Counted from the stretch's first letter, positions 13,031-62,549 are shown. The stretch: DNA of 64,000 nt from an uncultured Actinomycetota bacterium (GCA_963707435.1 CAVPPF010000005.1:70832-134831), one strand, 5' to 3'. The notes: a model not told the origin generated them from the sequence alone. Numbers and translations: made by a program.

Positions 13031-13114
13031 GTGGCTGCAAAGAAGCCAGCACCCAAGAAGGCCGCTCCCAAGAAGGCGGCCCCCAAACCTGCCGCAAAAC
13101 CCAAGAAGAGGTAA
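13031..13114 (+). CDS. Small basic protein, 27 aa: (M)AAKKPAPKKAAPKKAAPKPAAKPKKR
   Basis: GTG start 5 nt after a strong SD GAAGGAAGG (13017-13025). Stop TAA 13112-13114. Perfect terminator 17 nt downstream. Lys/Ala/Pro repeats resemble actinobacterial HU (HupB) tails. Confidence 0.55.
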   Translation: MAAKKPAPKKAAPKKAAPKPAAKPKKR

Positions 13115-30190: not shown

Positions 30191-30231
30191 GGCAGTCTCC
30201 TTTGCCTGGTGATGGAGACCGGAAGGAACTA

Positions 30232-30406: not shown

Positions 30407-30509
30407 TGATGTGTCCGTTCCCGGTCACTTTGTCCAGCGAAGACTAGCGCTGCACGTGACGTTCACAACCGTGAATGCTCTGCGGCGGCCGGCGGGTCGA
30501 CTTCCCCGG

Positions 30510-34823: not shown

Positions 34824-34935
34824 CGGGCTCCTTTCGCCAATCGAGGGTAGTCGGAAACCAGCGGCCGGTAGCCGGCACACGATCCTCGCGACCCGGCACC
34901 CGGCACCCGGTACCTGGAAACTGGGAAACGGCGAC

Positions 34936-35487
34936 TCAGTTGCGAGGAACGAGCAGCTTGCCGGCCGGCCGGCTCAGACTCGGGCGGTCCTTCCATGCGG
35001 CCACTTCTTCCAGGGCGAACCACCGGACCCCGGTCGTTCCATCACCGGCCGTTGCGTTCGGCGAGCCGGCGATGAACCCGAAACGGACGTCGAGGTGGTC
35101 GTGGGCAGGACCGTCCTCTCGTGACGGGAACCGGTGCACGTCGAGATCGAGAAGGCCGAATGCTTGCAGTTCCTCGAGTCCGGTTTCCTCGACCACCTCG
35201 CGGCGGGCCGCTGTCTCGAGATCCGTATCGCCCGGCTCGACATGCCCGCCCGGTTGCAGCCATTCTTTGAGCTTCGTGTGGTGTACCAGGAGCAGAGAAC
35301 GCCGGTCCGGCGAGACCACGAACCCGCTGGCGGTGAAGTGGCCGGGATTGAAGTGGAACCGCGAGAGAGCAGCACCGGACGTGTCCAGGAGAGCCAGCAT
35401 CGCATCGAGATAGCCGGACTCGAGATCGTCCAAGGGTTGGTGAGCAGCGAGCAGCGATCGAAGCGAAGCCAGACGTGGATCAGTCAT
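34936..35487 (-). CDS. NUDIX hydrolase
   Basis: Nudix box GGHVEPGDTDLETAARREVVEETG. Confidence 0.8.
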   Translation of the reverse strand: MTDPRLASLRSLLAAHQPLDDLESGYLDAMLALLDTSGAALSRFHFNPGHFTASGFVVSPDRRSLLLVHHTKLKEWLQPGGHVEPGDTDLETAARREVVEETGLEELQAFGLLDLDVHRFPSREDGPAHDHLDVRFGFIAGSPNATAGDGTTGVRWFALEEVAAWKDRPSLSRPAGKLLVPRN

Positions 35488-35526
35488 CAGTCATCAGCCG
35501 TGGTTCTCCTACCTCAGCCCGAATAC

Positions 35527-39433: not shown

Positions 39434-40062
39434 GCGCGGACGGCTTCCAGAATCTGCTCGGTGATCTCCGGGATCGATCCCAGGGCCTTGATCTCAACAA
39501 TGAGATCCCGCTCCTCGTAGAAGGCGATCAACGGTTCGGTCTCGAGCCGGTAAACCGCCAGCCGGTTCCTGATGACTGCTTCAGCGTCGTCCGCCCGCTG
39601 CTCGAGAGGCTCGCCGTCCACATCACACACCCCGGGCCGGGCAGGCGGACGATCATCAACGTGGTACGTGTGACCGTAGGCGCAACCCCGGCGGCCGCCG
39701 ATGCGCCTGACGACCTCATCCTCGTCAACGACGAACACCGCAACCCGGTCGATCCTTCCGGCCGGCGATGACTCCAGGGCGTGAGCCTGCGTCAGGTTCC
39801 GGGGGAATCCGTCCAGGATGAAACCGGCGGCAGCATCTTCGGCGGCGATCCGCTCGGTGAGCATCGCGACGACGAGCTCATCGGGGACGAGATTGCCGGC
39901 ATCCATGCGCCTCGAGGCCTTTTCCCCGAGTTCCGTGCCCGCCGCAATCTGCACGCGCAACATGTCCCCGGTGGAGATATGGGGCACATGGAGAGCCTCG
40001 GCGACCCGTTTGGCCTGCGTACCCTTGCCCGCTCCTGGTGGTCCGAGAAAGATGAGTCTCAC
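39430..40062 (-). CDS. adk: Adenylate kinase
   Basis: MRLIFLGPPGAGKGTQA... Confidence 0.96.
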   Translation of the reverse strand: MRLIFLGPPGAGKGTQAKRVAEALHVPHISTGDMLRVQIAAGTELGEKASRRMDAGNLVPDELVVAMLTERIAAEDAAAGFILDGFPRNLTQAHALESSPAGRIDRVAVFVVDEDEVVRRIGGRRGCAYGHTYHVDDRPPARPGVCDVDGEPLEQRADDAEAVIRNRLAVYRLETEPLIAFYEERDLIVEIKALGSIPEITEQILEAVRA

Positions 40063-40084
40063 AGAAGGTGTCCCGCTTCACTCG

Positions 40085-40150
40085 ACACGTACTACGTACC
40101 TCGTACCTCGTACCTGGTACCCACGACGAAGCACGGAATACGAAGTACGT
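40085..40150. repeat. Heptamer-periodic array (NNNGTAC)x about 9 in the adk-secY spacer
   Basis: cacgtac tacgtac ctcgtac ctcgtac ctggtac ccacgac gaagcac ggaatac gaagtac. Confidence 0.85.
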
Positions 40151-40159
40151 GGAGTGGGC

Positions 40160-41488
40160 TCACGTCAGGAAGCCTTCGTAGTTGCGCATCGTCAGCTGGC
40201 TCTCGATCTGTTTCATCGTCTCGAGGGCGACCCCGACCACGATGAGGATCGAGACGCCACCGAACCCAACACTGACGTCCCAAATGGCGCCGCCGATGGA
40301 GGGCAGGATGGACACAAGACCGAGGAACAGGGCCCCCGGCAGGGTGATCCGGTTGAGGATGTGCTCCAGGTGGCGGGCCGTCTGGCTGCCGGGACGCACG
40401 CCGGGAACGAACCCTCCTTGACGCTGGATCATCTCCGCCTGCCGGACCGGGTCGAACTGGATTGCCGTATAGAAATACGTGAAGAAGATGATCAAGGTGA
40501 ACAACAAGAAGATATAGAACGTGCTGACACCCTGACTGTTGCCGATGTTGATGTCGATCCAGTTGCGAACACTGGTCATGAAGCCGCCGCCATCGGATGG
40601 GATGGCCGTCGCCACTAGGACCGGGAAATACATCATGCTGGTGGCGAAGATGACCGGAATCACCCCGGCCGTGTTGACCTTCAGCGGGATATACGTGCTC
40701 TGACCGCCCATGACCCGACGACCGCGAACCCGTTTGGCGAACTGGATTGGGATTCTTCGTTGCCCCTGTTCGACGTAGATGATGCCGACGATCATCGTCA
40801 GGAACATTACGACGAAGACCAGGAAGATGGCCACCGCTCCCGGCCGGCCGGCGGTGATCGTCCCGGCATAGATCAGGGCAAAGCTGGACGGCAGCTGGCT
40901 CACGATCGAAACGAAGATCACGAGGGACATTCCGTTCCCGACACCTCGCTGCGTAATCAGCTCACCGATCCACATGATGAACGCCGTACCCGCCGTCATG
41001 GTGAGCACAATGAGCGCTACGCGTGGAGTCGTGTAGTCCTCCGGGGAAATGAGGAGAATGCCACCCGTGAGCGAGCCCCGGCTGAACAGATAGGTGATGC
41101 CGGTCGATTGCAGCAGAGCCAGAACCACCGTGAGGTAGCGAGTCCATTGGGTAATGACCTTCCGGCCCGATTCACCCTCGTCCTGGAGACGCTGCAGACG
41201 GGGGATGACGACCGCCAGCAGCTGCATGATGATGCTCGAAGTGATGTAGGGCATGATGCCGAGGCTGAAAACCGAGAATCTCTCGAGTGCTCCACCGGAG
41301 AACAGGTTGAGGAGGCCGACAATCCCGGCAGACTCCTGCTGTGCCGCCAGTTCCTGCACCTGGTTGAGGTCGACGCCCGGGACCGGGATGGCGGTCCCGA
41401 GCCGGTAGACGGCGAACATGGCAAGGGTGAACAGGATCTTCCGGCGTAGGTCCGGAATCTTGAACATGTAGCGGTAGATGGAAAGCAT
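40160..41488 (-). CDS. secY: Preprotein translocase subunit SecY
   Basis: 442 aa, 10 TM helices, conserved SecY signature. Confidence 0.97.
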   Translation of the reverse strand: MLSIYRYMFKIPDLRRKILFTLAMFAVYRLGTAIPVPGVDLNQVQELAAQQESAGIVGLLNLFSGGALERFSVFSLGIMPYITSSIIMQLLAVVIPRLQRLQDEGESGRKVITQWTRYLTVVLALLQSTGITYLFSRGSLTGGILLISPEDYTTPRVALIVLTMTAGTAFIMWIGELITQRGVGNGMSLVIFVSIVSQLPSSFALIYAGTITAGRPGAVAIFLVFVVMFLTMIVGIIYVEQGQRRIPIQFAKRVRGRRVMGGQSTYIPLKVNTAGVIPVIFATSMMYFPVLVATAIPSDGGGFMTSVRNWIDINIGNSQGVSTFYIFLLFTLIIFFTYFYTAIQFDPVRQAEMIQRQGGFVPGVRPGSQTARHLEHILNRITLPGALFLGLVSILPSIGGAIWDVSVGFGGVSILIVVGVALETMKQIESQLTMRNYEGFLT

Positions 41489-41491
41489 TGA

Positions 41492-41596
41492 CTCTCAGTT
41501 CTCAGTTGTACGTTCTTCGTTCTCGTTCTTCAATCTCGGTTTCAGCTACCGGTAGCAGGCTACTGAGTACTGAGTACTGGATACTAAGTACACCTA
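41492..41596. repeat. Heptamer-periodic array in the secY-rplO spacer: (TCTCAGT-like)x8 then (TACTGAG)x4
   Basis: ctctcagt tctcagt tgtacgt tcttcgt tctcgtt cttcaat ctcggtt ... ctactgag tactgag tactgga tactaag tacacc tactcg. Confidence 0.85.
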
Positions 41597-42061
41597 CTCG
41601 ATGACCTCCGCCGTCCCGCCGGCTTCTTCGATCTTGGCAACGGCCTCTTTGCTGAAGGCGTGCGCCTGCACGGTCAGCGCTTTGGTCAGGCTGCCTTCGG
41701 CCAGGACCTTGACCCGGCCGCGCTTTTTGACCAGGCCACGTTCCCGCAGAACATCGGGCGTGATCGTGGACTTCGCGATGAACTCGTTCAACCGGTCGAC
41801 GTTGACCACCGCGAAATACTCCTTGTTCGGATTGGTGAATCCCCGCAGTTTCGGCAAGCGGCGCGCCAGCGGCGTTTGCCCGCCCTCAAATCCGGGCCGC
41901 AGTTTGCTGCGGGCGTTCAATCCTTTGGTGCCACGCCCCGCCGTCTTTCCGCGCCGACCGCCTTCACCACGCCCGACCCGGATCCTGGCCTTCTTCGAAC
42001 CGGGGGCCGGTTTGAGATGGTGAAGCTGCAGCTTGTTGGTCTTGGTCTGTTCGTCTGCCAT
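41594..42061 (-). CDS. rplO: 50S ribosomal protein L15
   Basis: 155 aa. Confidence 0.96.
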
Positions 42062-42070
42062 ATCGTCCCT

Positions 42071-42109
42071 TACTCGTACTGAATACTGAGTACTGAGTAC
42101 TGAGTACTA
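42071..42109. repeat. Tandem heptamer repeat (TACTGAR)x5 in the rplO-rpmD spacer, running into the rpmD stop codon
   Basis: tactcg tactgaa tactgag tactgag tactgag tactac. The last unit supplies the rpmD stop (CTA on plus = TAG). Confidence 0.9.
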
Positions 42110-42298
42110 CTTCGTCTTCTCTTCCACCTTGACCAGGTGGGCAACTTTGTGGAGCATGCCTCGAACATCGGGAGTGTCCTGATGTTCGACCGTCTGCTGC
42201 ATCCGGCGCAAGCCGAGGCTGCGCACGGTAGCCCGCGTCTTGGGCTTTTGACCGATGATGCTCTTGACGAGCGTTACGGTGAGGGTCTTGTCGGCCAT
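42107..42298 (-). CDS. rpmD: 50S ribosomal protein L30
   Basis: 63 aa. [20 protein letters not shown]... Confidence 0.93.
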
Positions 42299-42300
42299 GG

Positions 42301-42852
42301 TTATCTCTCTTCGCCAACCTGGGTGCGCAACAACTCGGTCGAGCGGTACGCAGCCAGCAAACCGGGTGGGGTGACCTCTTCGGGTCGCTTCCCCCGCAAC
42401 CTGGCAACGTCTTCCGGGCGACGCTGAGCCATCAATCCCTGCATGGTGGCCCGCGCCACGTTGAGGTGGGTTGGTGACCCGAGAGATTTTGCAAGAGCAT
42501 CACGGACCCCTGCCGCTTCGAGGATCTGGCGAACAGCCCCACCGGCAATGACGCCGGTACCGGGAGCTGCGGGCTTCAGGAGCACGCGGGAGGCCCCGTG
42601 GACTCCCACTACCTCGTGGATCAGCGTGGTCCCGGCCATGGGGACGGGCGCCATCGCCTTGCGGCCGGCTTCCATGCCCTTCTGAATCGCTGCCGGAACT
42701 TCCTTGGCCTTGCCGTATCCGATCCCGACGTTGCCGCGACCGTCGCCGACGACCACCAACGCGGTGAACGAGAACCTCCGGCCGCCCTTGACGACCTTGG
42801 CGACCCGGTTGATTTGGACGACTCGCTCATCCAGTTGTTGCATCTCGGCCAT
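42301..42852 (-). CDS. rpsE: 30S ribosomal protein S5
   Basis: 183 aa. Confidence 0.97.
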
Positions 42853-42861
42853 CGATAACTC

Positions 42862-43215
42862 CTAAAACTTCAGACCGGATTCACGCGCGGACTCCGCCAG
42901 CGCCTTCACCCGGCCATGGAACGGGTATCCGCCCCGGTCGAATACCACTTCTGTGATCCCGGCGGCTGCGGCGCGTTCGCCGAGCAGCTTCCCAACCTCC
43001 GTTGCCGTGGCAACGGTGAGGGTCTTGGCACGCATGGCCGCTTCTTGCGAGGACGCTGCCGCCAGGGTGCGGCCTGCGTCGTCGTCGATGATCTGCGCGG
43101 AGATGTATCGATTGCTGCGAAACACCGCCAGACGGGGACGGGTCGCCGTTCCGTAGAGCTTCTTGCGGACCCGAACGTGCCGACGCCGCCGGGCTTGTGT
43201 GCGTGACCCCTTCAT
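42862..43215 (-). CDS. rplR: 50S ribosomal protein L18
   Basis: 117 aa. Confidence 0.96.
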
Positions 43216-43754
43216 CTGGCCACCCCTGCCTTTCCTGCCTTGCGCCGTACATACTCGTTCACGTAGCGAATGCCCTTGCCCTTGTAGGGCTCGGGCGGAC
43301 GTACCTGTCTGATGTCCGCGGCTACCTGGCCGACCAATTCCTTGTCGATCCCGCTCACAATGATGCGGGTTTGGTCGGGTACTTCAAAGGTGATGCCGTC
43401 GGGTGCCTTGATTTCCACCGGGTGGCTGTATCCAACCAGCAACTCGATGTCCTTGCCTTTCAGCGATGCCCGGTAGCCGACGCCGACGATGCTCAGTTCT
43501 TTCGTGAATCCCTGGGAGACACCCTCGACCATGTTGGCGAGCAGAGCCCTGGACAGGCCGTGCAGAGCACGGGTCTGCCGGTCTTCGTCGTTGCGGGTGA
43601 CGCGCGCTTCGCCCTCGTCAACCACGACGGTGATGCGCTCGTGGAAGGTTCGTTCGAGGGTTCCCTTCGGTCCTTTCACGGTGACCCCTTGCCCGGCGAC
43701 CTTGATGTCGACGCCCGGGGCGATCGGAACCGGGCTTTTTCCAATTCGGCTCAT
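43212..43754 (-). CDS. rplF: 50S ribosomal protein L6
   Basis: [19 protein letters not shown]... Start ATG 43754. Confidence 0.95.
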
Positions 43755-43755
43755 G

Positions 43756-44151
43756 TCACCACACCTCGCAGATGATCTCGCCGCCGAGACGCCGCCGGCG
43801 GGCTTCCCGGTCGGGAAGCAGACCCTGGGACGTGGAGACGACGATGACGCCGAGTCCGCCCTGGGACCGGGGAAGATCGGAAGCTCCCCGATAGACACGG
43901 TGCCCGGGTGAAGAAACACGGCGGATCCCCTGGATGACTCTCGTCCGTCCGGGCGCGTACTTCATCTTGACGGTCAACTCGTGGGCAGGGCCTTTCGGCT
44001 TGACTTCAAAGCCTTCGATGAAGCCTTCCGCAGCAAGGATCTTGGCGACTTCTGCCTTGACTTTTGACGAGGGCATCGCCACGGTCCTTTTCACGGCCTG
44101 ATTGCCGTTCCGGATTCTCGTCAACATGTCCGCAATGGGATCAGTGTTCAT
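43756..44151 (-). CDS. rpsH: 30S ribosomal protein S8
   Basis: 131 aa. [15 protein letters not shown]... Confidence 0.97.
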   Translation of the reverse strand: MNTDPIADMLTRIRNGNQAVKRTVAMPSSKVKAEVAKILAAEGFIEGFEVKPKGPAHELTVKMKYAPGRTRVIQGIRRVSSPGHRVYRGASDLPRSQGGLGVIVVSTSQGLLPDREARRRRLGGEIICEVW

Positions 44152-44336
44152 TACCAGGACGCCTTTCTGATCCCGGGAAGCTCACCACGTGAAGCCAGCT
44201 CTCTCACGCAAATGCGGCACATGCCGAACTTGCGCAGGTAGGCGCGCGACCGACCGCACCGCTTGCAGCGGTTGTAGGCGCGCACCTGGAACTTTGGTTT
44301 CCGTTGTGACTTCGCAATCAAACTCTTCTTTGCCAT
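44151..44336 (-). CDS. rpsZ: 30S ribosomal protein S14 type Z (zinc-binding, 61 aa)
   Basis: [46 protein letters not shown]... ATG 44336. Confidence 0.93.
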
Positions 44337-44349
44337 ACCAACCCTCGTT

Positions 44350-44907
44350 TCACGCCCTGGCTTCAGTTCTGCGGAACGGAAAGCCGAACGCTTCGAGCAG
44401 CGCTTTGGCATGCCCGTCAGAGCCGGCAGTCGTGCAGATGGTGATATCCATCCCCCGCACCGCGGTGACTTTGTCGTAGTCGATCTCCGGAAATATCAGT
44501 TGCTCGGTGACTCCGAAGCTGTAGTTGCCCCGTCCGTCGAACGACTTGGGATTGAGGCCACGAAAGTCCCGAACGCGGGGTATGGCAACCGCAACCAGGC
44601 GATCGAAGAACTCCCACATCCGGTCGCCCCGCATCGTCACGGAAACGCCAACGGCATTCCCCTGCCGGAGCTTGAAGTTGGCGATCGATTTCCTGGCCCG
44701 GTTGAGACGGGGCTTCTGACCGGTGATGATGGCGAGCTCTTCCATCGCCGCTTCGATCTGCTTCGGCTCGGAGACGCCCTCGCCGATTCCCATGTTCACC
44801 ACGATCTTCTCCATACGGGGAATCTGCATCGCGTTGTCGAGAGCGAGCTGCTCCTTCAGGGCCGGAGCCACCTCGGTCCGGTACTTCTCCTTGAGGCGAG
44901 GGATCAC
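44350..44907 (-). CDS. rplE: 50S ribosomal protein L5
   Basis: 185 aa. Confidence 0.97.
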
Positions 44908-45209
44908 AGGTCACCTCCGCACTTCACGCAAGTCCGGTGCTTGACACCGTCGGCGTCGATCCGGTGTCCGACCCTGGTCGGTCCGCAGTCGGGGCAGACA
45001 ATCATCACGTTGGAGGAATGAATCGGCATGTCTTTGTCGATGATGCCTCCCTGCATCGTTTGGCCGCGGGGAGCCTGATGCTTCTTGGCCGTGTTGACGC
45101 CTTCCACGATCAGCTTGTTCGTCTTCGGCATCACTCGGACCACGCGCGACTCTTTGCCGGCGTCCTTGCCGGAAATGACCTTGACCTTGTCTCCTTCGCG
45201 CAAACGCAT
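44904..45209 (-). CDS. rplX: 50S ribosomal protein L24 with a C-terminal C4 zinc-ribbon extension
   Basis: 101 aa. KOW motif; C-terminal CPDC...CVKC. Confidence 0.95.
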
Positions 45210-45577
45210 CAGATGACCTCCGGGGCAAGCGAGACGATCCGCATGAACTTCTTGTCTCGCAGTTCTCGAGCCACGGGACCGAAGATGCGGGTGCCACGCG
45301 GCTGCTGGTTCTGGTCGATGATCACGCAGGCGTTGTCATCGAATCGGATGTACGTGCCGTCGGGACGCCGGTACTCCTTGGCGGTCCGCACCACGACTGC
45401 CTTGACGACTTCGCCGCGTTTGACGGTGCCACCGGGAATGGCGTCCTTGACGGTGCCGACGATGATATCGCCCAGCCCGGCGTAGCGTCGGCGAGATCCA
45501 CCCAACACCCGAATGCAGAGCAGTTCACGGGCGCCGCTGTTGTCGGCGACCTTGAGCCGCGATTCCTGCTGGATCAT
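45209..45577 (-). CDS. rplN: 50S ribosomal protein L14
   Basis: 122 aa. Confidence 0.97.
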
Positions 45578-45837
45578 CGGGCACGCTCCACAACTTCAAT
45601 GACCCGCCAGCGCTTGGTCTTGGACAAAGGCCGCGTTTCGACGATCCGGACGGTATCGCCCAGCTTGGCGTCGTTGGCTTCGTCGTGGACGTGGAATTGC
45701 TTCCTGGATCTCACAACCTTGTCGTAACGCGGGTGACGCATCGACTGCGTGATCTCGACGGTGATCGTCTTGTCACGGGCGTCGGAAACCACCACGCCGA
45801 CTCTCGTCTTGCGTGTGGCACGCTCCTCGACCATCAC
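45574..45837 (-). CDS. rpsQ: 30S ribosomal protein S17
   Basis: 87 aa. Confidence 0.96.
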
Positions 45838-46067
45838 GTACCTTCCTTTTCCAGGGCCTGCTGCTGCGCAGCCCAGGCCTCGAGTTCCTGCTCCCGGATC
45901 AGCGTTGCGAGCCGGGCAATGTCCTTGCGCAACTCACCGAGGCGGGCTGTGTTGTCCAGTTGATTGGTTGCGAGCTGGAAACGAAGATTGAAGAGTTCTT
46001 CTTTCGACTCTTCCAATCGCTCCTGCAGTTCTTGCGCAGTGAGTTCGCGCAGATCTTCGGCTTTCAC
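45834..46067 (-). CDS. rpmC: 50S ribosomal protein L29
   Basis: (V)[38 protein letters not shown]... GTG start at 46067, directly after the rplP stop. Confidence 0.9.
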
Positions 46068-46477
46068 GTTTCCTCCCGCGTCACAAACTTGGTCTTGATG
46101 GGAAGCTTGTGTCCGGCGCGGCGCATCGCTTCGCGAGCCATGTCCTCCGGTACTCCGGACAGCTCGAACATGACCCGTCCCGGCTTCACCACTGCAACCC
46201 AGAACTCCGGGTTGCCCTTGCCGGAACCCATGCGCGTCTCGGCGGGTTTCTGAGTGACCGGTTTGTCGGGGAAGATGGTTATCCAAACCTTCCCGCCACG
46301 CTTGACGGTTCTCGTGATCGCCACGCGAGCGGATTCGATCTGTCGAGCCGTGATCCAGCCCTCTTCCAGAGCCTTGATCCCGTACTCGCCGAAGGAGACC
46401 CTGGTTCCGCCTTTGGCATTGCCACGCCGGCGACCCCGGTGCATCTTCCGGTACTTGGTTCGTTTTGGCATGAGCAT
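46064..46477 (-). CDS. rplP: 50S ribosomal protein L16
   Basis: 137 aa. [11 protein letters not shown]... Confidence 0.97.
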
Positions 46478-47637
46478 TAGGCATCACCGCCCTTGCCGTT
46501 CGACGGGTCGGCCGCGCCATCCTCAACCGCAGCTTCTTCAGCGGCATCGGCGGCAACCGGTTCCTCGGTCGCTTCGGTTACGGCCGGCTCGGCGATGGTC
46601 CCGGCAGCCACGACCTCTTTGGTCTCTACGTCGGCGGTGGGCTCCTCGACGAGTTCGTCGGGAGCGCCGGCAACCGGGCCGTCGACCTCTACGATCTCTT
46701 CGAAATCCTCGGCCGCAATGTCCGGTGCGCCTACTTCATCGACCGCTACCGTCTCGACCTCATCCTCGTACTCGCTCTTCGCCAGTTCGGGAGCAATCCG
46801 CTTGCCGCCCCCCGCCTCGATGAGGCGCTTGCCGTCTCGCTTGCCGCCACCGGCTTCGATGAGGCGCTTGCCGCCGCCGGCTTCGATCACCTTGGAACCC
46901 CGCTCGCCTCCCACGGCGTGCTCGGCTCGTGCCTTGGCAGGCGCCACGCGGCCCGGTGCACCGGAGGCGAGGGCAGCCTCAGCGGCAACTTTCTCGCGGG
47001 TGACCTTCAACGAGGTGACGACGTCGCCCTTGTAGACCCAAACCTTGATCCCGATGGCACCGACGGTGGTGCGAGCGGTGGCAGTCCCGAAATCGATGTC
47101 GGCCCGCAACGTATGCAACGGTACGCGACCTTCGCGGTACCACTCACGACGGCCCATGTCGGAACCGCCCAGGCGGCCGTTGGACTCGACGCGAACTCCT
47201 TCCGCTCCCGCTTTCATGGCAGTGGCAACTGCTCGTTTCATGGCGCGACGGAACGAGACGCGGTTCTCGAGTTGATCTGCGATGCCGCGAGCCAGCAGCT
47301 GCGCATCGGTCTCCGGATCCCGAACCTCGATGATGTTGAGCTTCACCCGGCGGCCGCTGAGTTTCTCCAGCCCGGCGCGGAGCCGATCGGCCTCCGACCC
47401 TTTCCGTCCGATGACGACACCCGGGCGGGCGGTGTGGATCTCGACGACGACTTTGTCGCGGGTTCGCTCGATCTCGATACGGGACACGGCGCCGCGGGTC
47501 AGCTCCTTCTGGAGATAGTCGCGGATCTGCCAGTCTTCATTGACGAGCTCTGTGTATTCCTTGTCGCTGTACCAGCGGGACTTCCAGTCCGTCACTATCC
47601 CGAGACGGAATACGTACGGGTGTACTTTCTGGCCCAT
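46477..47637 (-). CDS. rpsC: 30S ribosomal protein S3 with a long acidic C-terminal extension of about 150 aa carrying three LIEAGGGKR repeats
   Basis: 386 aa. Canonical S3 through about residue 230, then [32 protein letters not shown] and a Glu/Ala/Val/Asp-rich tail. Confidence 0.95.
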
Positions 47638-47978
47638 TACGCCTCATCCTCCTCGGAAACCACAATCGTGATGTGGCTGGTTCGTTTGCGGATTCTCGTT
47701 GCCCGGCCGCGCGCCCTGGGCCGCCAGCGCTTGAGGGTGGGACCCTCGTCGGCGAAGGCCTCGACGACGACCAGTTCCCCGGCGTCGAGAGCGAAGTTGT
47801 GCTCGGCGTTGGCCACGGCCGAATTCAGCACCTTGACCACCGGGTCGGCTGCGCGGCGGTCGGTGAAGGCCAGCACGTGGCGGGCCTCCTCGACCGGGAG
47901 TCCCCGGACCAGGTCGAGCACCCGCCGTACCTTGTACGGCGACTGTCGAATGTGTTTTGCGTGGGCGCGCACCTTCAT
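47637..47978 (-). CDS. rplV: 50S ribosomal protein L22
   Basis: 113 aa. Confidence 0.96.
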
Positions 47979-48259
47979 CCTCGCCTCGCTGCCTTATCTC
48001 GTGCTCCCGCATGGCCGCGGAAGGTTCTCGTCGGAGCAAACTCACCGAGCTTGTGACCGACCATCGATTCTGTGATGTACACGGGGACGTGCTTGCGCCC
48101 GTCGTGCACAGCAATGGTATGCCCGACCATCTCGGGGATGATCGTGGACCGCCGACTCCAGGTCTTGATGACCCGCTTCTCACCCTTGCGGTTGAGTTCG
48201 TCGACCTTCTTGACGAGATGATCGTCGATGAAGGGTCCCTTTTTCAAACTGCGAGCCAT
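47975..48259 (-). CDS. rpsS: 30S ribosomal protein S19
   Basis: 94 aa. [10 protein letters not shown]... Confidence 0.97.
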
Positions 48260-48307
48260 CGACTTACCTCCGACCCTTCATGAAGCCTGCAACGGGAGTC
48301 CGCATCT

Positions 48308-49141
48308 TCAGCGCCTCCCCTTCTTCGAGCGCCGACGCACAATGTCCTTGTCGCTGGCTTTGTTCTTCTTCCTGGTCCGGCCTTCCGGCTTGCCCCACGG
48401 GCTCACCGGGTGGCGGCCGCCGGACGACTTGCCCTCTCCTCCACCGAGCGGATGGTCCACCGGGTTCATTGCCACGCCCCGGGTCTGCGGACGGACGCCC
48501 TTCCACCGGGACCGTCCTGCCTTGCCGGTCTTCACCAGTTCCGACTCCGGATTCCCGACCTCGCCAACCGTTGCCCTGCAGTCGAGCTCAACGTTGCGCA
48601 TCTCGCCGGAGGGCAGGCGAAGTAAAGCCTTGTTTCCTTCTTTGCTCATCAGCTGGACCGCGGCGCCTGCGGAACGAGCGATTTTGGCACCGCCACCGGG
48701 ACGCATCTCGATGGCGTGCACGGTCGTCCCGGCCGGGATGTTTCGCAGAGGAAGAGCGTTGCCGGGTCGAATCTCGGCACCCGAGCCGGACTCGAGGACG
48801 GCTCCCGGCTTGATGCCGAGCGGAGCAAGGATGTAGGTCTTTTCGCCATCGGCATAGTGCAGAAGCGCCAGGCGGGCATTCCGGTTCGGGTCGTACTCAA
48901 TGGCAGCGACCTTGGCAGGAATCCCATCCTTGGTGCGGCGGAAATCGACGATGCGGTAGCGCTGCTTGTGACCACCGCCTCGATGCCGGGAGGTGATACG
49001 ACCGTGCACGTTGCGACCGCCGGTTGAGCTCTTCTTGTCGATCAGGCCCTTCTCCGGCTTCTTCTTGGTGATCTCCGAGAAGTCCGAGATCGTCTGGAAG
49101 CGCCGGCCCGGCGATGTTGGTTTCAGTTTCCTTACAGCCAT
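48308..49141 (-). CDS. rplB: 50S ribosomal protein L2
   Basis: 277 aa. Confidence 0.97.
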
Positions 49142-49149
49142 AACAAGTC

Positions 49150-49226
49150 CTCAGTTATCAGTTCACAGTTCTCAGTACCAGCCAAGCCGTCTGCCGACGA
49201 CCGATAACTGACAACTGATAACTCGC
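49150..49226. repeat. Inverted repeat built from CAGTTAT-type heptamers in the rplB-rplW spacer; predicted long RNA hairpin
   Basis: tcagttatcagttcacagttctcagta...N25...cgataactgacaactgataactcg. The 11-bp core AGTTATCAGTT is mirrored by AACTGATAACT. Confidence 0.75.
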
Positions 49227-49240
49227 GATACGTCTTCATC

Positions 49241-49528
49241 TCACACACCAAATATGTCGATCGAGTCGCCGGGGGCCAGGGTCACGAGGGCACGCTTGGT
49301 GTCTCCGCGTTTGCCGACGACCCATCCCGTCCTTTTCAGCTTGCCCTTGCGGTTCATCGTGTTCACCTTCAGGACCTCCACGTCGAACACGCGTGAAACG
49401 GCCTGGCGGATCTCGGTCTTGTTCGCCCGCCGATCGACCACGAAGGTGTACGTATTCAGATCCTCGATCAGGTCGTACGATTTCTCCGAGACGACCGGGG
49501 CGAGGATGACGTCACGAGGGTCTTTCAT
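49241..49528 (-). CDS. rplW: 50S ribosomal protein L23
   Basis: 95 aa. Confidence 0.96.
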
Positions 49529-50331
49529 GACTTCTCCCCTTCCTTCTCGAAGTCTTCTTCTGAATCAGCCCCAGCTGACGAAGCGGTGCCCTTGGGCGCC
49601 GGTTCGTCCAACGGCTCCGGCGCAGCCGGAGACGCAGCTTCGTCCAACGCCTTCGACTCCGTCGAAGGCGCCTCCATAACGAAGTCCTTCTCCGACACGT
49701 CGTAGGAGCCGGCCGCAGCCGAACCGAGCGTATCGGTCGTGAACAGCACCGTGTCCGCCCACAGCACGTCGTATGCGGACAGCTGCCCGGAACGTGTGAG
49801 CATCACGTGGGGAAGATTACGGAACGAGCGTTCCGCGACCCGATCCGCCGGCCCGAGCACGATCAAAGCCTTGCGGGTGGCACCGACGGCTGCGAGGAGG
49901 GCGCTCGCCTTCTTCGTCTTGGGCTCGGCCCAATCGAGTGTTTCCACGACTTTGATGCTCCCCTCGGATGCTCTCGCCGAAAGTGCACTCCGGAGTGCCA
50001 GCTTCTTCATCTTCTTCGGGGTTCGCTGGCTGTAGTCACGCGGATGAGGACCGAACACGACGCCACCGCCGACCCACTGGGGGGATCGGATGGAACCGTG
50101 GCGGGCTCGCCCGAGTCCCTTCTGGCGCCATGGTTTCCGGCCGCCACCCCGAACTTCACTGCGGGTCTTGGTGCTGGCCGTGCCGGACCGGGCCGCGGCG
50201 CGCTGAGCGTTCACGACCTGGTGCATGACCGGTATGTTGGGTTCGATCCCGAATACGGCAGGGTCAAGGGGAACGTCGCCCTTCGGCGTGCCGTCACTCG
50301 CGAACAGCGGAGCTTGGACTACCTCAGGCAT
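49525..50331 (-). CDS. rplD: 50S ribosomal protein L4 with an acidic C-terminal extension of about 55 aa
   Basis: 268 aa. Core L4, then ...[49 protein letters not shown]. Confidence 0.95.
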
Positions 50332-50962
50332 TGGCCTTCACCGCCTCCCGAACGAGCACGACCGAACCGGAAGGTCCGGGAACGGATCCTCCCAGCATCA
50401 GGATCCCGCGCTGGGCATCGACATCGACAATCTCCACATTGAGGGTGGTCACCCGTTCGCCACCCATCCGGCCCGGCATCTTCTTGCCCTTGAAGACGCG
50501 GGCAGGCGTTGCACAAGCGCCGATCGAACCAGGCGCCCGGTGCACCTTGTGCACGCCATGACTGGCTCCCTGGCCGGAGAAGTTGTGGCGTTTCATGACG
50601 CCCTGGAATCCTTTTCCCTTTGAGATGCCGGCGACGTCGGCCTTCCCACCCTTGACCAGCACATCGGCGACCGTGATCTCCTGCCCTACCTTGTAGTCCT
50701 CCGGGTTGTCGACCCGGATTTCAACCAGGTGGCGGCTCGGCGCTACCCCGGCAGCGGCATAGTGGCCGGCCATGGGTTTGTTCACCTTGCGAGCGGGCAA
50801 CTCCCGGAACGAGATTTGAATGGCCGAATAGCCGTCGGCCTTTTCCGTCTTGATCTGCGTGACGAAGCACGGACCGGCCTTGATGACCGTGACGGGGATG
50901 GCCCTGGCCTCATCGTCGAACACCTGGGTCATTCCGAGCTTCTCGCCGAGAATCGCCTTCAC
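50324..50962 (-). CDS. rplC: 50S ribosomal protein L3
   Basis: 212 aa. Confidence 0.97.
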
Positions 50963-51273
50963 AGCTTGATCTCCACTTCTACACCGGCGGGAAGGTCGAG
51001 ACGCATGAGCGAGTCAACCGTCTTGGGAGTCGGCTCGAGTATGTCGATGAGCCGCTTGTGGATGCGCATCTCGAAGTGCTCCCGCGAGTCCTTGTCGACA
51101 TGGGGCGATCGGATGACGCAGTAGCGGTGAATCTCCGTTGGGAGCGGCACCGGGCCCTTGATCTTCGCCTGGGTGCGCACCACCGTCTCGGCGATTTTCC
51201 GCGCGGACTCGTCGACCACTTCGTGGTCGTAAGCCTTCAGTCTGATGCGGATCTTCTGTCCTTGGTCTGCCAT
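50959..51273 (-). CDS. rpsJ: 30S ribosomal protein S10
   Basis: 104 aa. Confidence 0.97.
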
Positions 51274-51281
51274 GTTCGCTC

Positions 51282-51336
51282 AACTCTGTTTCGTTCACGT
51301 ACTCAGTACTGAGTACTAGGTACTGGGTACTCGGTA

Positions 51337-51339
<3 letters not shown>
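51282..51339. repeat. Heptamer-periodic array (CTNNGTA)x about 8 in the tuf-rpsJ spacer, overlapping the tuf stop codon
   Basis: caactct gtttcgt tcacgta ctcagta ctgagta ctaggta ctgggta ctcggta ctag. The final GGTACTAG supplies the tuf stop TAG. Confidence 0.9.
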
Positions 51340-52527
<1,188 letters not shown>

Positions 52528-52542
52528 GGGATAGCCTCCTGG

Positions 52543-54660
52543 TTACTCGCCGCGCACCCGGGCGACGATCTCCTGGGAGATCGAATCGGGCACGTCCTGG
52601 TAGGAATGGAATTGCATTGTGTGGGTCGCACGGCCCTGAGTACGTGACCTCAGGTCGGTGGCATACCCGAACATCTCGGCCAGCGGCACCTGGGCGGTGA
52701 CCACCCGGGCGTTGCCCCGCTGCCCCATCTCGTCGATTTTTCCGCGCCGGGAAGACAAATCCCCGATCACGTCGCCCATGTACTCTTCCGGAACCACGAC
52801 TTCGACAGCCATAACCGGCTCGAGCAGCTTCACGCCGGCCCGCTTGGCAGCATCCTGCAAAGCTATGGACCCGGCAATCCGGAAAGCCATCTCCGAGGAG
52901 TCGACATCGTGGTACGACCCGTCGGTGAGGATTGCCCGGACATCCACCAGCGGATATCCGGCCAGGATGCCCTGATCGAGGGCCTCCTCGATACCGGCGT
53001 CTACCGATGGGATGTACTCGCGAGGGACGTTGCCGCCCTTGATCTGATCAACGAACTCATAACCGCCGCCGGGACCCGTCGGCTCGAGGTCGATGACCAC
53101 GTGCCCGTATTGTCCGCGCCCACCCGACTGGCGGACGTACTTGGCGACGACTTTGCTCACCGGACCCTTGATGGTCTCCCGGTAGGCAACCTGGGGCCGG
53201 CCAACATTGGCGCCGACCTTGAATTCACGGATCAGCCGGTCGACGAGCACGTCGAGGTGCAGTTCGCCCATGCCGGCGATGATGGTCTGGCCGGTCTCTT
53301 CGTCGGTACGCACCAGGAACGTCGGGTCTTCTTCCGAGAGACGGTGCAGGGCATCGCCCAGCTTGTCCTGGTCCGACTTGGTCTTCGGTTCGATCGCAAC
53401 CGAGATGACCGGGGCGGGAAAGGTCATCGACTCCAGCTGGATCGGATGGGCGGCATCGCAGAGGGTGTCGCCGGTGGTCGTCATCTTCAACCCGATCGTG
53501 GCGACGATGTCGCCGGTATGGATCGTTTCGAGATCCTCACGGTGGTTGGCGTGCATCCGTAGCAAACGGCCGATGCGCTCTTTCTTGGCCGAGGTCGCGT
53601 TGTAGATCTGGTCGCCCTTGGTGGCCTGACCCGAATACACGCGGAAGTAGGTGAGCTTGCCGACATGCGGGTCGCTCATGATCTTGAAAGCCAGAGCAGT
53701 GAAGGGCTCGGTGTCGTCGGCGGCCCGCTCGAGGACGATGTCTTCCTCGCCCGGTTTGAAGCCCTGCACCGGGGGCAGGTCGGCCGGGCTGGGCAGGTAG
53801 TGGATGACCGCATCGAGCAGAGGCTGCACACCCTTGTTCTTGAAGGCCGAGCCGCAGAAGACGGGTGTGAAGTGACGCTTCAGCGTGGCGGTCCGCACCG
53901 CGGCATGCACCTCGGACGGCGAGATCTCGACTTCTTCCAGGAACTTCTCGAGCAGCTTCTCATCTACGTCGGCGCAGGCCTCGAGCAGCTTGCCCTCCCA
54001 CATACGGGCTTGTTCCTGGTACTCGGCGGGGATCTCGATGGTCTCCCAGTGCTTGCCGTCGTCGCCGCTCCAGATGTGGGCCTTCATCTCGACGAGGTCG
54101 ATGACGCCCTGAAACTCGGCTTCGGCGCCGATGGGCAACTGGACGGGAACCGGGTTGCCCTCCAGCCGATCACGAATGCTGTCGACGGCCGCAAAGTAAT
54201 CGGCCCCGATCCGGTCCATCTTGTTGATGAAGCAGATGCGGGGAACCTTGTAGCGGTCGGCCTGACGCCATACGGTCTCGGATTGAGGCTCAACGCCGGC
54301 AACCGCGTCGAAGACGGCAACAGCGCCGTCGAGTACCCGGAGGCTGCGCTCGACCTCCACCGTGAAGTCGACGTGCCCGGGGGTGTCGATGATGTTGATC
54401 CAGTGATCGCGCCATCCGGCGGTGGTAGCGGCTGAGGTGATGGTGATGCCGCGCTCCTGCTCTTGCGCCATCCAGTCCATCACGGCGGCGCCTTCATGGA
54501 CTTCACCGAGCTTGTAGGTCTTGCCGGTGTAGTACAGGATACGTTCGGTGAGCGTCGTTTTGCCCGCGTCGATATGCGCCATGATCCCGATATTCCGGGT
54601 CCGGCTGAGCGGGTACTGACGCAGGTGCGTCAGTGCATCGTTGCTCTTTCCGTTGCTCAT
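52543..54660 (-). CDS. fusA: Elongation factor G
   Basis: 705 aa. AHIDAGKTT... Confidence 0.98.
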
Positions 54661-54698
54661 CTCTTCCTCAGTCGCTATGCGGTTGTCAGGCGGTCGTA

Positions 54699-55166
54699 CT
54701 ACCAGCGGTAGTGGGCAAAAGCCTTGTTTGATTCGGCCATCTTGTGGATGTCTTCGCGGCGCTTCACGGCGGAGCCGGTATTGTTGCTCGCATCGAGAAT
54801 CTCGTTGGCCAATCGCTCGGCCATGGCGTTTTCCTTGCGCTTGCGAGCGAAGTTGACCAACCAGCGGATCGCCAGCGAGTTGGCACGGCGGGGTCGAACA
54901 TCCACCGGCACCTGGTAGGACGAACCGCCGACCCGGCGAGAACGAACCTCAACTTGCGGCCGGATGTTGTCCACGGCTCGCTTCAGCACCGTGAGAGGAT
55001 CCTGGCCGACGCGTCGTTCCACGATCTCGAGAGCGCCGTACACGATCGACCGGGCGGTCTCTTTCTTGCCGTCGAGCAGGACCTTGTTGATGATCTGGCT
55101 GACCAGAAGGCTCCGGTAGACGGGATCCGGGTCGATGTGCCTTTTTGGCGCAGGTCCACGTCGCAT
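54699..55166 (-). CDS. rpsG: 30S ribosomal protein S7
   Basis: 155 aa. Confidence 0.97.
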
Positions 55167-55537
55167 TACGACTCCCTCTTCGTTCCGTAGCGGGAACGTG
55201 CTTGCCGGCGGCCCGATACCGCCGCAGCATCGAGCGTGCCGCGAATGACCTTGTAGCGAACTCCCGGCAGATCCTTCACCCGGCCACCACGGACCAGAAC
55301 GATGGAGTGCTCCTGGAGGTTGTGCCCTTCACCGGGGATGTAGGCGGTGACCTCAACCCCGGAGGAGAGACGAATACGCGCTACCTTGCGCAAGGCCGAG
55401 TTGGGCTTCTTGGGCGTCACGGTATAGACACGGGTACAAACCCCGCGTCGCTGCGGCGCCCCGGCCAGACCGGGCGTCTTTTCCTTCTTGGGCTTCGGCT
55501 TCCGACCCTGACGGATCAGCTGCTGAACGGTCGGCAC
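55166..55537 (-). CDS. rpsL: 30S ribosomal protein S12
   Basis: 123 aa. [12 protein letters not shown]... Confidence 0.97.
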
Positions 55538-55753
55538 AGACCCTTCTCTCTTCTCTTCGGCACACCCCGACCCAAATGTGGGAACGGGTATTTACAGACG
55601 GAACAGCGCGTTCGCCGGGGCGAAAGCACCGATCCAGCCACTTCATCGCCCACAGGCCGCCGTGGCGACCTCAGGACACGCGGAAACGTGGCGGGAAAAC
55701 CGAGACGGAAGTATATGCGCGACCGGGAGATGTTGCAAAAGGCGCACTTGGGG

Positions 55754-55820
55754 CGTACTCGGTACTCAGTACTAGGTACTAGGTACTAGGTACTAGGTAC
55801 TCGGTACTCGGTACTTACTA
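55754..55820. repeat. Tandem heptamer repeat (GTACTNG)x about 10: GGTACTA x4 flanked by GGTACTC units
   Basis: cgtactc ggtactc agtacta ggtacta ggtacta ggtacta ggtactc ggtactc ggtactt actacc. It ends 12 nt before the start codon of the plus-strand gene at 55833 and lies about 220 nt upstream of rpsL. Confidence 0.9.
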
Positions 55821-55832
55821 CCCTCGCGTCCG

Positions 55833-56453
55833 ATGTTCATCACCGTTCCCCGCCCCGAGCTGCGCAGGCGGCTCCCTCAACTGATGATCGGTCTCGTCGT
55901 CGTTGGTGTTGGGTTTGCCTTGATGGTCGAATCCGACCTGGGCCTCGGCCCGTGGGAGGTCCTCCACCAGGGGATTTCGAATCGAGTCGGCATCCCCATC
56001 GGGACGGTCGGCATCTTCGTCGGGTTGCTCGTGCTGGGCGCCTGGATTCCCTTGCGCCAGCGACTGGGGGTCGGCACGGTGCTCAACGTCATCACCATCG
56101 GCATCGTGATCGATCTCACGATGCTGGCCATTCCTGATCTGAGCTCTCTCCTGATCCGCGGGCCGGCGCTGCTCGGTGGCTTGCTCCTGGTCGGAATCGG
56201 AGGAGGCCTCTATATCGGGGCGGGCCTGGGACCCGGCCCCCGGGACGGACTGATGACCGGCATGGCCGCTCGGGGCTGGTTCTCGATTCGGACCGCCCGC
56301 ACGCTCCTCGAGGTCACCGCGTTGACCGCCGGGTGGTTGCTGGGTGGAACCGTCGGCGTCGGCACCCTTCTCTTCGCCGGAGGGATCGGTCCGCTCGTGC
56401 AGATGTTCCTGGGCAGGCTGGCGATCGGCGAAAACATCTCTGTTCCGCCCTGA
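55833..56453 (+). CDS. YczE/YitT-family (DUF161-like) integral membrane protein
   Basis: 206 aa. Gly-rich TM helices with the GLGPWEVL motif. Confidence 0.6.
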   Translation: MFITVPRPELRRRLPQLMIGLVVVGVGFALMVESDLGLGPWEVLHQGISNRVGIPIGTVGIFVGLLVLGAWIPLRQRLGVGTVLNVITIGIVIDLTMLAIPDLSSLLIRGPALLGGLLLVGIGGGLYIGAGLGPGPRDGLMTGMAARGWFSIRTARTLLEVTALTAGWLLGGTVGVGTLLFAGGIGPLVQMFLGRLAIGENISVPP

Positions 56454-56524
56454 ACCATCAGGGAAGCCCTCCAAGCAGTCGCCGGCTACGTCCCACCAAC
56501 GTCGCGGATCCTGGATTCGAAGAT

Positions 56525-61599: not shown

Positions 61600-62534
61600 A
61601 CGAGCTGGGTTCACTCATTGCTGCGGCAGCTCCTCTCGTGTTCGCAGTTGTCGGCGAGACCATCACCGAAAAAGCCGGCATCATCAACCTGTCCTTGGAA
61701 GGCAGCCTGATGCTGGCTGCGATGACCGGCTTCGCTGTATCGTTCGAAACCAACAGCCTCCTCCTGGGATTCCTCGCCGCTGCCATTGTTGGGATGCTGG
61801 TTGCGTTGCTCGTCGCTTTCTCCAGCATTTCCCTCAAGCTCAACCAGGTCGCCGTTGGATTTGTGCTGTTCCAGTTGTGCACTGACCTGAGCACGTTCCT
61901 TGGTCAGGCTTACGTTCGAATCCCGGGACCTTCGGTGCAAGCCCTCCCCATTCCACTGCTCGAAGATATCCCAATATTGGGCCCGCTGGTATTCGATCAA
62001 AACCTGGTTGTGTATGCCAGTTTCGTCGTAGTTATCGCGGCCTACTACTTCATGTTCCGCACACGGCCGGGCCTCGAGCTACAGGGCGTAGGTGAGCGGC
62101 CCGAAGCCGCACACGCCCGAGGCATTCCCGTCAATCGTCTCCGCTATCTGTATACGGCAATCGGAGGATCCCTGATTGGTGTGGCCGGAGCTTCTTACTC
62201 ACTAGCCGTCAAGCTCGGTTGGTCTTTTCAACACACGAGAAACCTCGGCTGGATTGCACTTGCCATCGTTATTTTCGGAGGGTGGCAACCCATCCGAGCG
62301 GCGGCCGGGGCCTATCTCTTTGCAGGACTGCTAACCCTGGCTCAACTGCTCCAGGAGTCCTTGCCGGGGATCGCCCAAATCCTTCCCACCATTCCGTTCC
62401 CGCTCATGATCTTCACTCTCGTCATTGTGTACAGCGATTGGCTGCGGAATTTGACCGACAGGTTCCCAGCCCTACGAACAGTATTTGCAAGCGAACCCCC
62501 CACCGCCATCGGCACAGTGTTCGAGGCGGACTGA
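61596..62534 (+). CDS. ABC transporter permease (BMP-type)
   Basis: 312 aa, multi-TM. 4-bp overlap with the previous permease. Confidence 0.88.
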   Translation: MNELGSLIAAAAPLVFAVVGETITEKAGIINLSLEGSLMLAAMTGFAVSFETNSLLLGFLAAAIVGMLVALLVAFSSISLKLNQVAVGFVLFQLCTDLSTFLGQAYVRIPGPSVQALPIPLLEDIPILGPLVFDQNLVVYASFVVVIAAYYFMFRTRPGLELQGVGERPEAAHARGIPVNRLRYLYTAIGGSLIGVAGASYSLAVKLGWSFQHTRNLGWIALAIVIFGGWQPIRAAAGAYLFAGLLTLAQLLQESLPGIAQILPTIPFPLMIFTLVIVYSDWLRNLTDRFPALRTVFASEPPTAIGTVFEAD

Positions 62535-62549
62535 GTACTCAGTACTCAG
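62531..62549. repeat. Short heptamer repeat (ACTGAGT/ACTCAGT) overlapping the permease stop codon
   Basis: ctgagtactcagtactcagg. The TGA stop lies inside the first unit. Confidence 0.7.

Follow-up and report, generated by a model that had tools for sequence, protein, structure and literature searches.

A 64,000-nt stretch of DNA from an uncultured Actinomycetota bacterium (GCA_963707435.1, CAVPPF010000005.1:70832-134831; hereafter the window, numbered from its first letter) carries a ribosomal-protein superoperon whose intergenic spacers, above all those between positions 40,085 and 55,820, contain tandem arrays of 7-nt units. These heptad arrays are very probably heptanucleotide simple sequence repeats (SSRs) of the class already known from short tandemly repeated repetitive (STRR) sequences, long SSRs and (TAACTGA)n repeats, and this class is newly documented here in Acidimicrobiia. 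Many of the arrays are predicted to fold into long imperfect hairpins, for which a role at the RNA level is proposed tentatively, at somewhat less than even odds. Class membership and an RNA-level hairpin role, taken together, are given a probability of about 0.55. The main rival, itself on the unlikely side, is that the arrays are a neutral product of replication slippage.

Detection of Period-7 Arrays

Arrays were called with Tandem Repeats Finder (TRF), a lag self-match scan, a stricter detector and reading of both strands, and coding DNA was separated from non-coding DNA on a gene map built from the GC content of third codon positions (GC3). Heptad arrays occupy 11 spacers of the window (Table 1). 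Ten of these had been listed in a first-pass annotation, and TRF and sequence reading found period-7 arrays at all ten, with coordinates that were exact or a few bases off; the eleventh, in the NUDIX|Yip1 spacer, was missing from that list. TRF copy numbers range from 2.7 to 8.7, and the clearest period-7 calls are at 7725-7773, 40095-40121, 41493-41591, 42076-42108, 49146-49176, 51299-51338, 55755-55815 and 62530-62549. When periods 2-14 were scanned by lag self-match, strong windows were confined to period 7 and to 14, its multiple, and period 15 gave weak windows only. Similarly, over periods 4-12 the stricter detector returned arrays at period 7 alone, 8 in all. All eight lie in non-coding DNA, which makes up 9.3% of the window, so that the probability of this placement by chance is about 0.093^8. 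No arrays were found in 30 dinucleotide shuffles of the window, and 100 shuffles of its non-coding part gave a mean of 0.02 arrays. The arrays are not an artefact of assembly, because they recur in independent metagenome assemblies: the 105-nt rplO|secY spacer is 100% identical in contigs of three independent samples (L127, L129 and L130), and the rpmD|rplO array recurs in L131.

The arrays also stand out in composition. The window has a GC content of 62.7%, rather than the 65% given in the first-pass annotation, while the arrays have 39-55%, with the exception of 34885-34924 at 72%. It had been stated that most units contain the palindromes AGTACT or GGTACC; AGTACT is strongly concentrated in the arrays, with 12 of its 15 copies, but GGTACC is not, with only 2 of 16. 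The tetramer GTAC is concentrated about 22-fold, 38 of its 190 copies in the window falling within 587 array bases. Dispersed loci have related units, and one repeat family (D1) joins the arrays at 40088, 41545, 42075, 51298 and 55754.

The uL15 protein of the window is 98% identical to metagenome proteins, and its named relatives are metagenome-assembled genomes (MAGs) of Acidimicrobiia; judged from protein identity, the source organism is an uncultured member of Acidimicrobiia. The minus-strand operon runs rpsL, rpsG, fusA, tuf, rpsJ, rplW, rplB, rpmD, rplO, secY, adk and map, and on to rpoA and rplQ. Names were assigned to tuf, rpsJ, rplW, rplB, rpmD, rplO, secY and adk from Pfam labels on collinear orthologous loci. 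The earlier placement of arrays within polycistronic ribosomal-protein units is supported. Outside the superoperon, arrays flank an IMPDH-family gene, an Rce1-like gene, the NUDIX and Yip1 genes, an unannotated ORF beside rpsL, and two convergent permease genes.

Array Design and Conservation among Relatives

Heptad arrays are found in relatives with 74-98% uL15 identity at the tuf|rpsJ, rplW|rplB, rpmD|rplO, rplO|secY, secY|adk, rplQ|NUDIX and NUDIX|Yip1 junctions. In 126 kb of sequence from relatives, 25 arrays have period 7 and none has a period of 4-6, 8-13 or 15. The array sequences at shared junctions often differ between relatives. For instance, the tuf|rpsJ junction of L256 has (GTACYGG)n, the NUDIX|Yip1 junction also has arrays in L005, L132 and L133, and the L006 site orthologous to the array at the NUDIX start (L006 16590-16640) consists of (TAACTGA)n/(TGACTGA)n, so that the NUDIX start there is overlain by (TAACTGA)n, the motif of Beggiatoaceae in its exact form. 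Relatives differ in copy number, as the first-pass annotation had supposed, and do so by whole units: the rpmD|rplO array is 4 units long in the window, while L131 has 5 (exactly one extra) and L133 has 2.

The arrays share a common design, in which a near-invariant core of 4-5 nt is followed by 2-3 variable linker positions. In the best 4-nt windows, 11 mismatches were observed against 28.6 +/- 3.0 expected (P < 5e-5). The cores seen in the lineage are GTAC, CAGT/ACTG, CAGC/GCTG, CAAG/CTTG and CGAG/CTCG. At rplW|rplB, secY|adk, tuf|rpsJ and rpmD|rplO the inverted arms are complementary despite their lineage-specific cores, the complementary pairs being CAGTT/AACTG in the window and L005, CCAGC/GCTGG in L132 and L006, CAAGY/GCTTG in L133, and CGAG/CTCG at tuf|rpsJ of L132; the common core of the window, GTAC, is palindromic itself. 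With a palindromic core or complementary inverted arrays at many junctions, the spacer can therefore fold into a long imperfect hairpin.

This design bears on the main rival, according to which the arrays are slippage-prone filler in tolerant spacers of a lineage whose replication favours 7-nt slippage, template switching or gene conversion produces the hairpins and matched arms, and no function is served. Uniform mutation after slippage does not predict a near-invariant 4-nt core with variation confined to 2-3 linkers, and the recurrence of arrays at the same junctions across relatives of 74-98% L15 identity likewise argues against a purely neutral origin.

The same design can be read as a landing platform for a single-strand nucleic-acid binder with a footprint of about 7 nt, of the cold-shock-domain or S1-like kind, which would define a post-transcriptional regulon as set out by MacGregor (PMC4679880). 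In favour of such a factor, a constant core recurs every 7 nt without exception while the linkers vary, and the arrays border on or overlap with start codons and Shine-Dalgarno sequences. The start-proximal arrays of rplB, secY and NUDIX read AACTGNN, GAGAACT and CTGATGA in mRNA sense and lie 0-10 nt from a Shine-Dalgarno sequence or start codon, the array-preceded genes at 7784 and 55833 have no obvious Shine-Dalgarno sequence, and the exact repeat over the NUDIX start in L006 also fits. However, at least 5 cores occur in one lineage, and even within one genome, a diversity that one sequence-specific binder does not account for; many arrays form complementary pairs that would be double-stranded, and no candidate protein was identified. 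The binder is accordingly judged improbable.

Predicted RNA Folding

Single-sequence RNA folds were compared with shuffles as z scores for 30 spacers from the window and its relatives. The predicted shape is a long imperfect hairpin in which helices of 5-6 bp are separated by small internal loops, in agreement with the hairpins that the first-pass annotation had anticipated. In the window, the rplW|rplB spacer folds at -42.5 kcal/mol (z -5.4) with 8 G.U pairs, its antisense reaching only -23.6 kcal/mol, and secY|adk folds at -48.1 kcal/mol (z -4.5) as the spacer alone and at -55.9 kcal/mol (z -3.9) with flanks. The tuf|rpsJ spacer gives z -1.8 to -2.0, and the rplO|secY fold is no better than shuffles (z +0.4 and -0.8). 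Among relatives, z is -6.1 for rpmD|rplO of L005 and -2.8 to -4.1 for tuf|rpsJ of L132. Overall, z was below -2 in 12 of the 30 spacers, with a mean of -1.8; the most extreme value for a single spacer was -6.1 in one fold run and -4.8 in the other. A heptameric SSR thus forms, in silico, one arm of a long leader hairpin at rplW|rplB, at secY|adk and in several relatives, with z <= -3.4. The largest folded domain starts at a median of 4 nt past the stop codon and ends at a median of 9 nt before the start codon.

The rplW|rplB hairpin gives the most direct comparison between species. In the window and L005, which are about 85% identical in flanking genes, the start-proximal arm (Shine-Dalgarno sequence included) matches without a difference over 42 nt, and all 4 of the 4 substitutions at paired positions, which fall in the other arm, retain pairing through G.U. 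This wobble-compatible pattern again runs counter to neutrality. The window and L005, being of equal length, were the only pair usable for judging covariation.

At gathering score, Rfam 15, which includes ribosomal-protein leaders, matched no spacer, and the only match in the window was a glmS ribozyme elsewhere. A permissive Rfam search of 39500-56500 gave a single match, to mir-1537, at chance level (E = 0.55), on the rplW|rplB hairpin at 49151-49225 (-); this match to a plant microRNA precursor model merely reflects a long imperfect hairpin.

Replacement of Spacer Alleles among Near-Identical Strains

Three spacers of the window (42062-42106, 41489-41593 and 40063-40159) were compared with L127-L130, L001, L131 and L133. 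The flanking genes of the window have 96-98% nucleotide identity to those of L127, L129, L130, L128 and L001, and yet, unexpectedly, in all five the rpmD|rplO spacer is an unrelated allele. In addition, the rplO|secY spacer is replaced in L001 and L128, and the secY|adk spacer in L001 (the L128 contig ends short of secY|adk). The replacing type-B allele, a GC hairpin with GGAACTG units, also occurs in L005 and L132, at no more than 80-86% identity to the window, and the type-A spacers of the window are collinear in L131 (83.5%) and L133 (78.6%). The strains fall into three haplotypes, namely A+A, B+B and B+A, the last seen in three independent samples. Matching codon indels accompany type A in the last rpmD codons and the first rplO codons, which points to the swapping of a tract slightly larger than the spacer by homologous exchange, and not to divergence in place.

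Cassette-like replacement between near-identical strains could also suggest miniature mobile elements or elements of the repetitive extragenic palindromic (REP) or bacterial interspersed mosaic element (BIME) kind, inserting at intergenic sites; the intergenic position within operons and the hairpin potential agree with this, and the first-pass annotation had likened the arrays to REP/BIME. However, no unit longer than the heptads is shared, the replacement boundaries have no terminal repeats or target duplications, the replaced tract reaches into flanking codons as homologous recombination predicts, and no Rfam family is matched. A repeat search recovered only heptad-derived similarity between spacers and no shared 20-40-nt palindromic unit, and REP-like identity was rejected. 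Of all the readings considered, insertion of mobile elements is the one given the least credence, close to none.

Possible Function of the Hairpins

The explanation favoured here is that heptanucleotide SSRs of a known class form hairpins acting on operon mRNA. The arrays would grow and shrink by replication slippage and would be transcribed within the operon mRNA, where the predicted hairpin would fill approximately the interval between the stop codon of one gene and the Shine-Dalgarno sequence of the gene that follows, drawing these two sites close. Such hairpins may act in cis on the downstream cistron through ribosome access or translational coupling; alternatively, their role in cis may be that of stem-loops for processing or stabilisation. 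Among demonstrated cases, the nearest precedent is the (ATCTTTC)n hairpin in the 5'-UTR of Haemophilus hmw1A, which RNase III cleaves (PMC12721329).

Several observations weigh against a role for the hairpins. The operon of L255 (75% uL15 identity) has an rplW|rplB spacer of 2 nt, an rplO|secY spacer of 7 nt and an overlap of secY and adk, where the window has heptad spacers of 45-105 nt; because this operon is compact without any of them, the heptad spacers are dispensable, lineage-specific additions. Eighteen of the 30 spacers are not significantly structured. Over all spacers, sense and antisense folding do not differ (Wilcoxon p = 0.17), so that selection on RNA is not demonstrated. The main hairpin covers 0.82 of the spacer against 0.72 in shuffles (shuffle maximum 0.80), a modest excess, and covariation read from alignments cannot be relied on, since there are several registers in which the repeats can be matched. 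Slippage together with template switching could also yield inverted, mutually homogenised arms without selection. The L255 operon, the equal folding of both strands and the small excess in coverage all favour the neutral reading, as does the wholesale replacement of spacers between strains that are 96-98% identical, and polymerase slippage has been put forward as a possible cause of heptamers (Mrazek 2007, as cited in PMC4679880 and PMC4692102).

A role at the level of DNA, in which promoter spacing or phasing or the binding of nucleoid proteins is affected and unit number tunes transcription as in phase variation, was also considered; the first-pass annotation had suggested that a change in copy number would alter promoter geometry. 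The arrays at 7601-7775 and 55754-55821, the only ones in divergent promoter regions, would suit such a role. Upstream of rpsL, and directly beside the latter array, there is a sigma-70-like hexamer pair at 55710-55739 (-), TTTGCA and TATACT with an 18-nt spacer, which is a consensus match only. Moreover, a run of 21 bp, or three units, makes two turns of the helix, and periods of 14 and 21 appear in the TRF output as well. However, most arrays are intercistronic, running from a stop codon to the next Shine-Dalgarno sequence in housekeeping operons; promoter-like sites are not in excess (4 found against 3.2 expected), the scan for promoters and terminators having shown no enrichment of either; and the G.U-dependent pairing at rplW|rplB suits RNA over DNA. 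A DNA-level role is considered very improbable, and both it and the protein-binding platform are less likely than the hairpin or the neutral reading.

Distribution and Significance

Scans of public collections showed that such arrays are widespread. The pattern (ACTGNNN)4ACTG gave at least 120 matches in species-representative genomes against about 1 expected by chance, those listed including Chloroflexota, Cyanobacteria, Acidobacteriota, Bacteroidota, Planctomycetota, Beggiatoaceae and others, and (GTACNNN)4GTAC gave at least 120 matches in metagenomes, again against about 1. Controls of period 6 and period 8, run on viral contigs, likewise gave at least 120 matches; the scans therefore speak for a wide occurrence of such arrays but do not single out period 7 in the collections covered. 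For 118 ACTG-core arrays from many phyla, the start of a long ORF lies within 40 nt downstream in the forward orientation for 30 and in the reverse orientation for 14; the random-position control being 22%, this is a weak test and is not relied on here. Very long ACTG-core arrays of 14-27 units, in which the spacer triplets drift along the array, were seen in some genomes, among them Planctomycetaceae, Daejeonella and Acidobacteria MAGs (L036 5739-5924 and 6892-7007; L066 9-138; L029 47-141).

The bacterial preference for intergenic 7-nt repeats is treated as unexplained in PMC4679880 and PMC4692102, and the question dates from the cyanobacterial STRR sequences. The lineage described here offers a clean natural comparison, in that the same essential-gene junctions have arrays, other arrays or, in L255, none, that arms change sequence and yet stay complementary, and that discrete alleles segregate among near-identical strains. 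If the hairpins are functional, they would be a simple and evolvable means of tuning single cistrons inside the most conserved operons of bacteria; if they are neutral, a strong 7-nt slippage bias has been documented that needs a mechanistic explanation. In practice, the arrays are places where short-read assembly and operon annotation can err. A far broader and speculative proposal, which we regard as a long shot, is that heptad arrays with a 4-5-nt core are the cis elements of a widespread post-transcriptional system, read by an RNA-binding factor with a 7-nt footprint or by the ribosome, and that they are exchanged between species as spacer alleles that retune the stoichiometry of ribosomal-protein operons. 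Such a system would span Acidimicrobiia, cyanobacteria, Beggiatoaceae, Chloroflexota, Acidobacteriota and Planctomycetota, and the A and B spacer alleles of strains that are 96-98% identical would then be functional regulatory variants, not drift.

Features of the Window

The arrays and their positions relative to neighbouring genes are collected in Table 1.

Table 1. Heptad arrays and array-built hairpins in the 64-kb window.
Position	Strand	Feature	Units and context	Basis
7601-7645	-	degenerate heptad array	minus-sense (CTGANNN)-type units; about 58 nt upstream of IMPDH-family gene 6385-7542(-)	sequence reading; Pfam PF00478 (gene)
7714-7775	+	array	(GAGTACC)3 then (GAATACT/GAGTACT)4; ends 8 nt ahead of the start of Rce1-like gene 7784-8545(+), no obvious Shine-Dalgarno sequence between	TRF, period 7, 7 copies
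34885-34924	-	NUDIX|Yip1 array	ends at Yip1 start (34880)	Pfam
35479-35497	-	(CTGATGA) array	2.7 units; includes NUDIX start codon at 35487	TRF
40079-40156	-	secY|adk intercistronic hairpin		TRF and RNA fold
40085-40124	-	secY|adk, start-proximal arm	(AGGTACG)n in mRNA sense	
40125-40156	-	secY|adk, stop-proximal arm	(NCGTAYT)n in mRNA sense	
41493-41540	-	rplO|secY start-proximal array	GAAGAAC/GAGAACT-type units in mRNA sense; ends 4 nt before secY start	TRF
41558-41591	-	rplO|secY stop-proximal array	(CAGTACT)n in mRNA sense	
42071-42109	-	rpmD|rplO array	TAC(TCAGTAC)4; begins inside rpmD stop codon; ends 14 nt before rplO ATG, just ahead of Shine-Dalgarno AAGGGA	TRF
49143-49226	-	rplW|rplB intercistronic hairpin	two inverted heptad arrays	inverted-repeat detection, fold
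49200-49226	-	rplW|rplB arm	(CAGTTNT)n in mRNA sense	
49146-49178	-	rplW|rplB arm	(AACTGNN)n, one exact TAACTGA; covers rplB Shine-Dalgarno GAGGA	
51296-51343	-	tuf|rpsJ array	GTACYNA units; begins inside tuf stop codon	TRF
55754-55821	+	longest array	(GTACTNG)9; divergent region between rpsL (-) and ORF 55833-56453 (+), ends about 12 nt before the ORF	TRF, 8.7 copies, 92% matches
62530-62549		short palindromic heptad array	ACTCAGT, 2.9 units; between convergent permease genes, both PF02653	TRF

Other features of the window were observed in passing. The glmS ribozyme (RF00234, 90 bits, full length) lies at 30250-30414 (-), immediately upstream of a 630-aa ORF at 28364-30256(-). The uS3 protein (46477-47637, -) has 386 aa, with a long C-terminal extension past KH_2 and S3_C, and is 368-424 aa long in relatives; the extension carries a 39-nt tandem repeat at 46799-46873. 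A 77-aa ORF at 12881-13114 (+) has a Lys/Ala/Pro-rich basic tail, AAKKPAPKKAAPKKAAPKPAAKPKKR, from a 15-nt tandem repeat at 13040-13086.

Comparison with Known Repeat Systems

REP elements of enterobacteria and pseudomonads consist of a palindromic consensus unit of 20-40 nt and are associated with a RAYT transposase. REP/BIME sequences resemble the arrays in being intergenic, frequently within operons, and hairpin-forming, but the unit shared within the window is only 7 nt. Similarly, mycobacterial interspersed repetitive units (MIRU), with units of about 40-100 bp, are actinobacterial tandem repeats of variable copy number in intercistronic operon spacers; they may carry short ORFs that overlap flanking genes, and MIRU identity does not apply to a 7-nt unit.

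The cyanobacterial STRR heptanucleotides were reportedly described by Mazel in 1990. Like STRR and long SSRs, the arrays are tandem heptanucleotides at many intergenic loci, and some STRR units contain CAGT (CCCCAGT, CAACAGT); the differences lie in the phylum (here Acidimicrobiia, with about 62% GC), in the units, and in the concentration here within operon-internal spacers. Although the first-pass annotation did not recognise the arrays as a described repeat family, heptanucleotide arrays have been described before (PMC4679880, PMC4692102), and as cited in these two papers, Mrazek (2007) found that, in most of the genomes studied, heptanucleotide repeats outnumber every other class of long SSR. 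In a Nostoc preprint, heptamer repeats close to start codons are reported, with their function left unresolved.

A closely related repeat already described is (TAACTGA)n. MacGregor (2015, PMC4679880) counted 169 sets in a Beggiatoaceae genome, most of them in forward orientation right before a start codon, and some inside ribosomal-protein operons (fusA, L3, S4, S1); the repeat is known from marine Beggiatoaceae, cyanobacteria and Bacteroidetes, and an RNA-binding regulator has been proposed for it. The arrays described here agree in having 7-nt tandem units with an ACTG core in 2-6 or more copies, in their intergenic location, for the most part immediately ahead of a start codon, and in their forward orientation where they stand a few nt from the start (rplB, secY, NUDIX). 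Exact TAACTGA units occur in the rplB-proximal arm and at the L006 NUDIX start, but most units in the window are GTACTNN. The arrays differ in that several other cores occur and inverted complementary pairs are frequent; furthermore, the array is here usually followed by a Shine-Dalgarno sequence, which BOGUAY repeat regions mostly lack. It was also considered that ACTGA might let such arrays supply stop codons in all three frames. This idea was rejected for the window: the mRNA-sense repeat of several arrays is (CAGTACT)n, and it has no stop codon.

For the GGGAATC heptads of Xanthomonas, Rehm (2015, PMC4692102) reported a core of conserved positions, pairs in inverted orientation, and between-species variation in length and sequence at the same junctions. 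The GGGAATC/GGGGAYT repeats of Xanthomonas and Nostoc (PMC4692102) thus share with the present arrays a core with degenerate positions, an intergenic location, some inverted pairs, and variation at the same junctions. However, they are G-rich and form G-quadruplexes, whereas the arrays of the window are AT-richer, are not G-tracts and are predicted to form duplex hairpins.

In this last respect the arrays come closest to hmw1A of Haemophilus influenzae, the only heptad locus with an experimentally shown mechanism, where the transcribed (ATCTTTC)n repeat is one arm of a 5'-UTR hairpin cut by RNase III (PMC12721329). In both cases a transcribed heptameric SSR (predicted to be so in the window) contributes one arm to a long hairpin that closely precedes the coding sequence. 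The hmw1A repeat belongs to a single phase-variable adhesin locus and its other arm is non-repeat and G-rich, whereas here the hairpins stand at many housekeeping junctions and both arms are often repeats.

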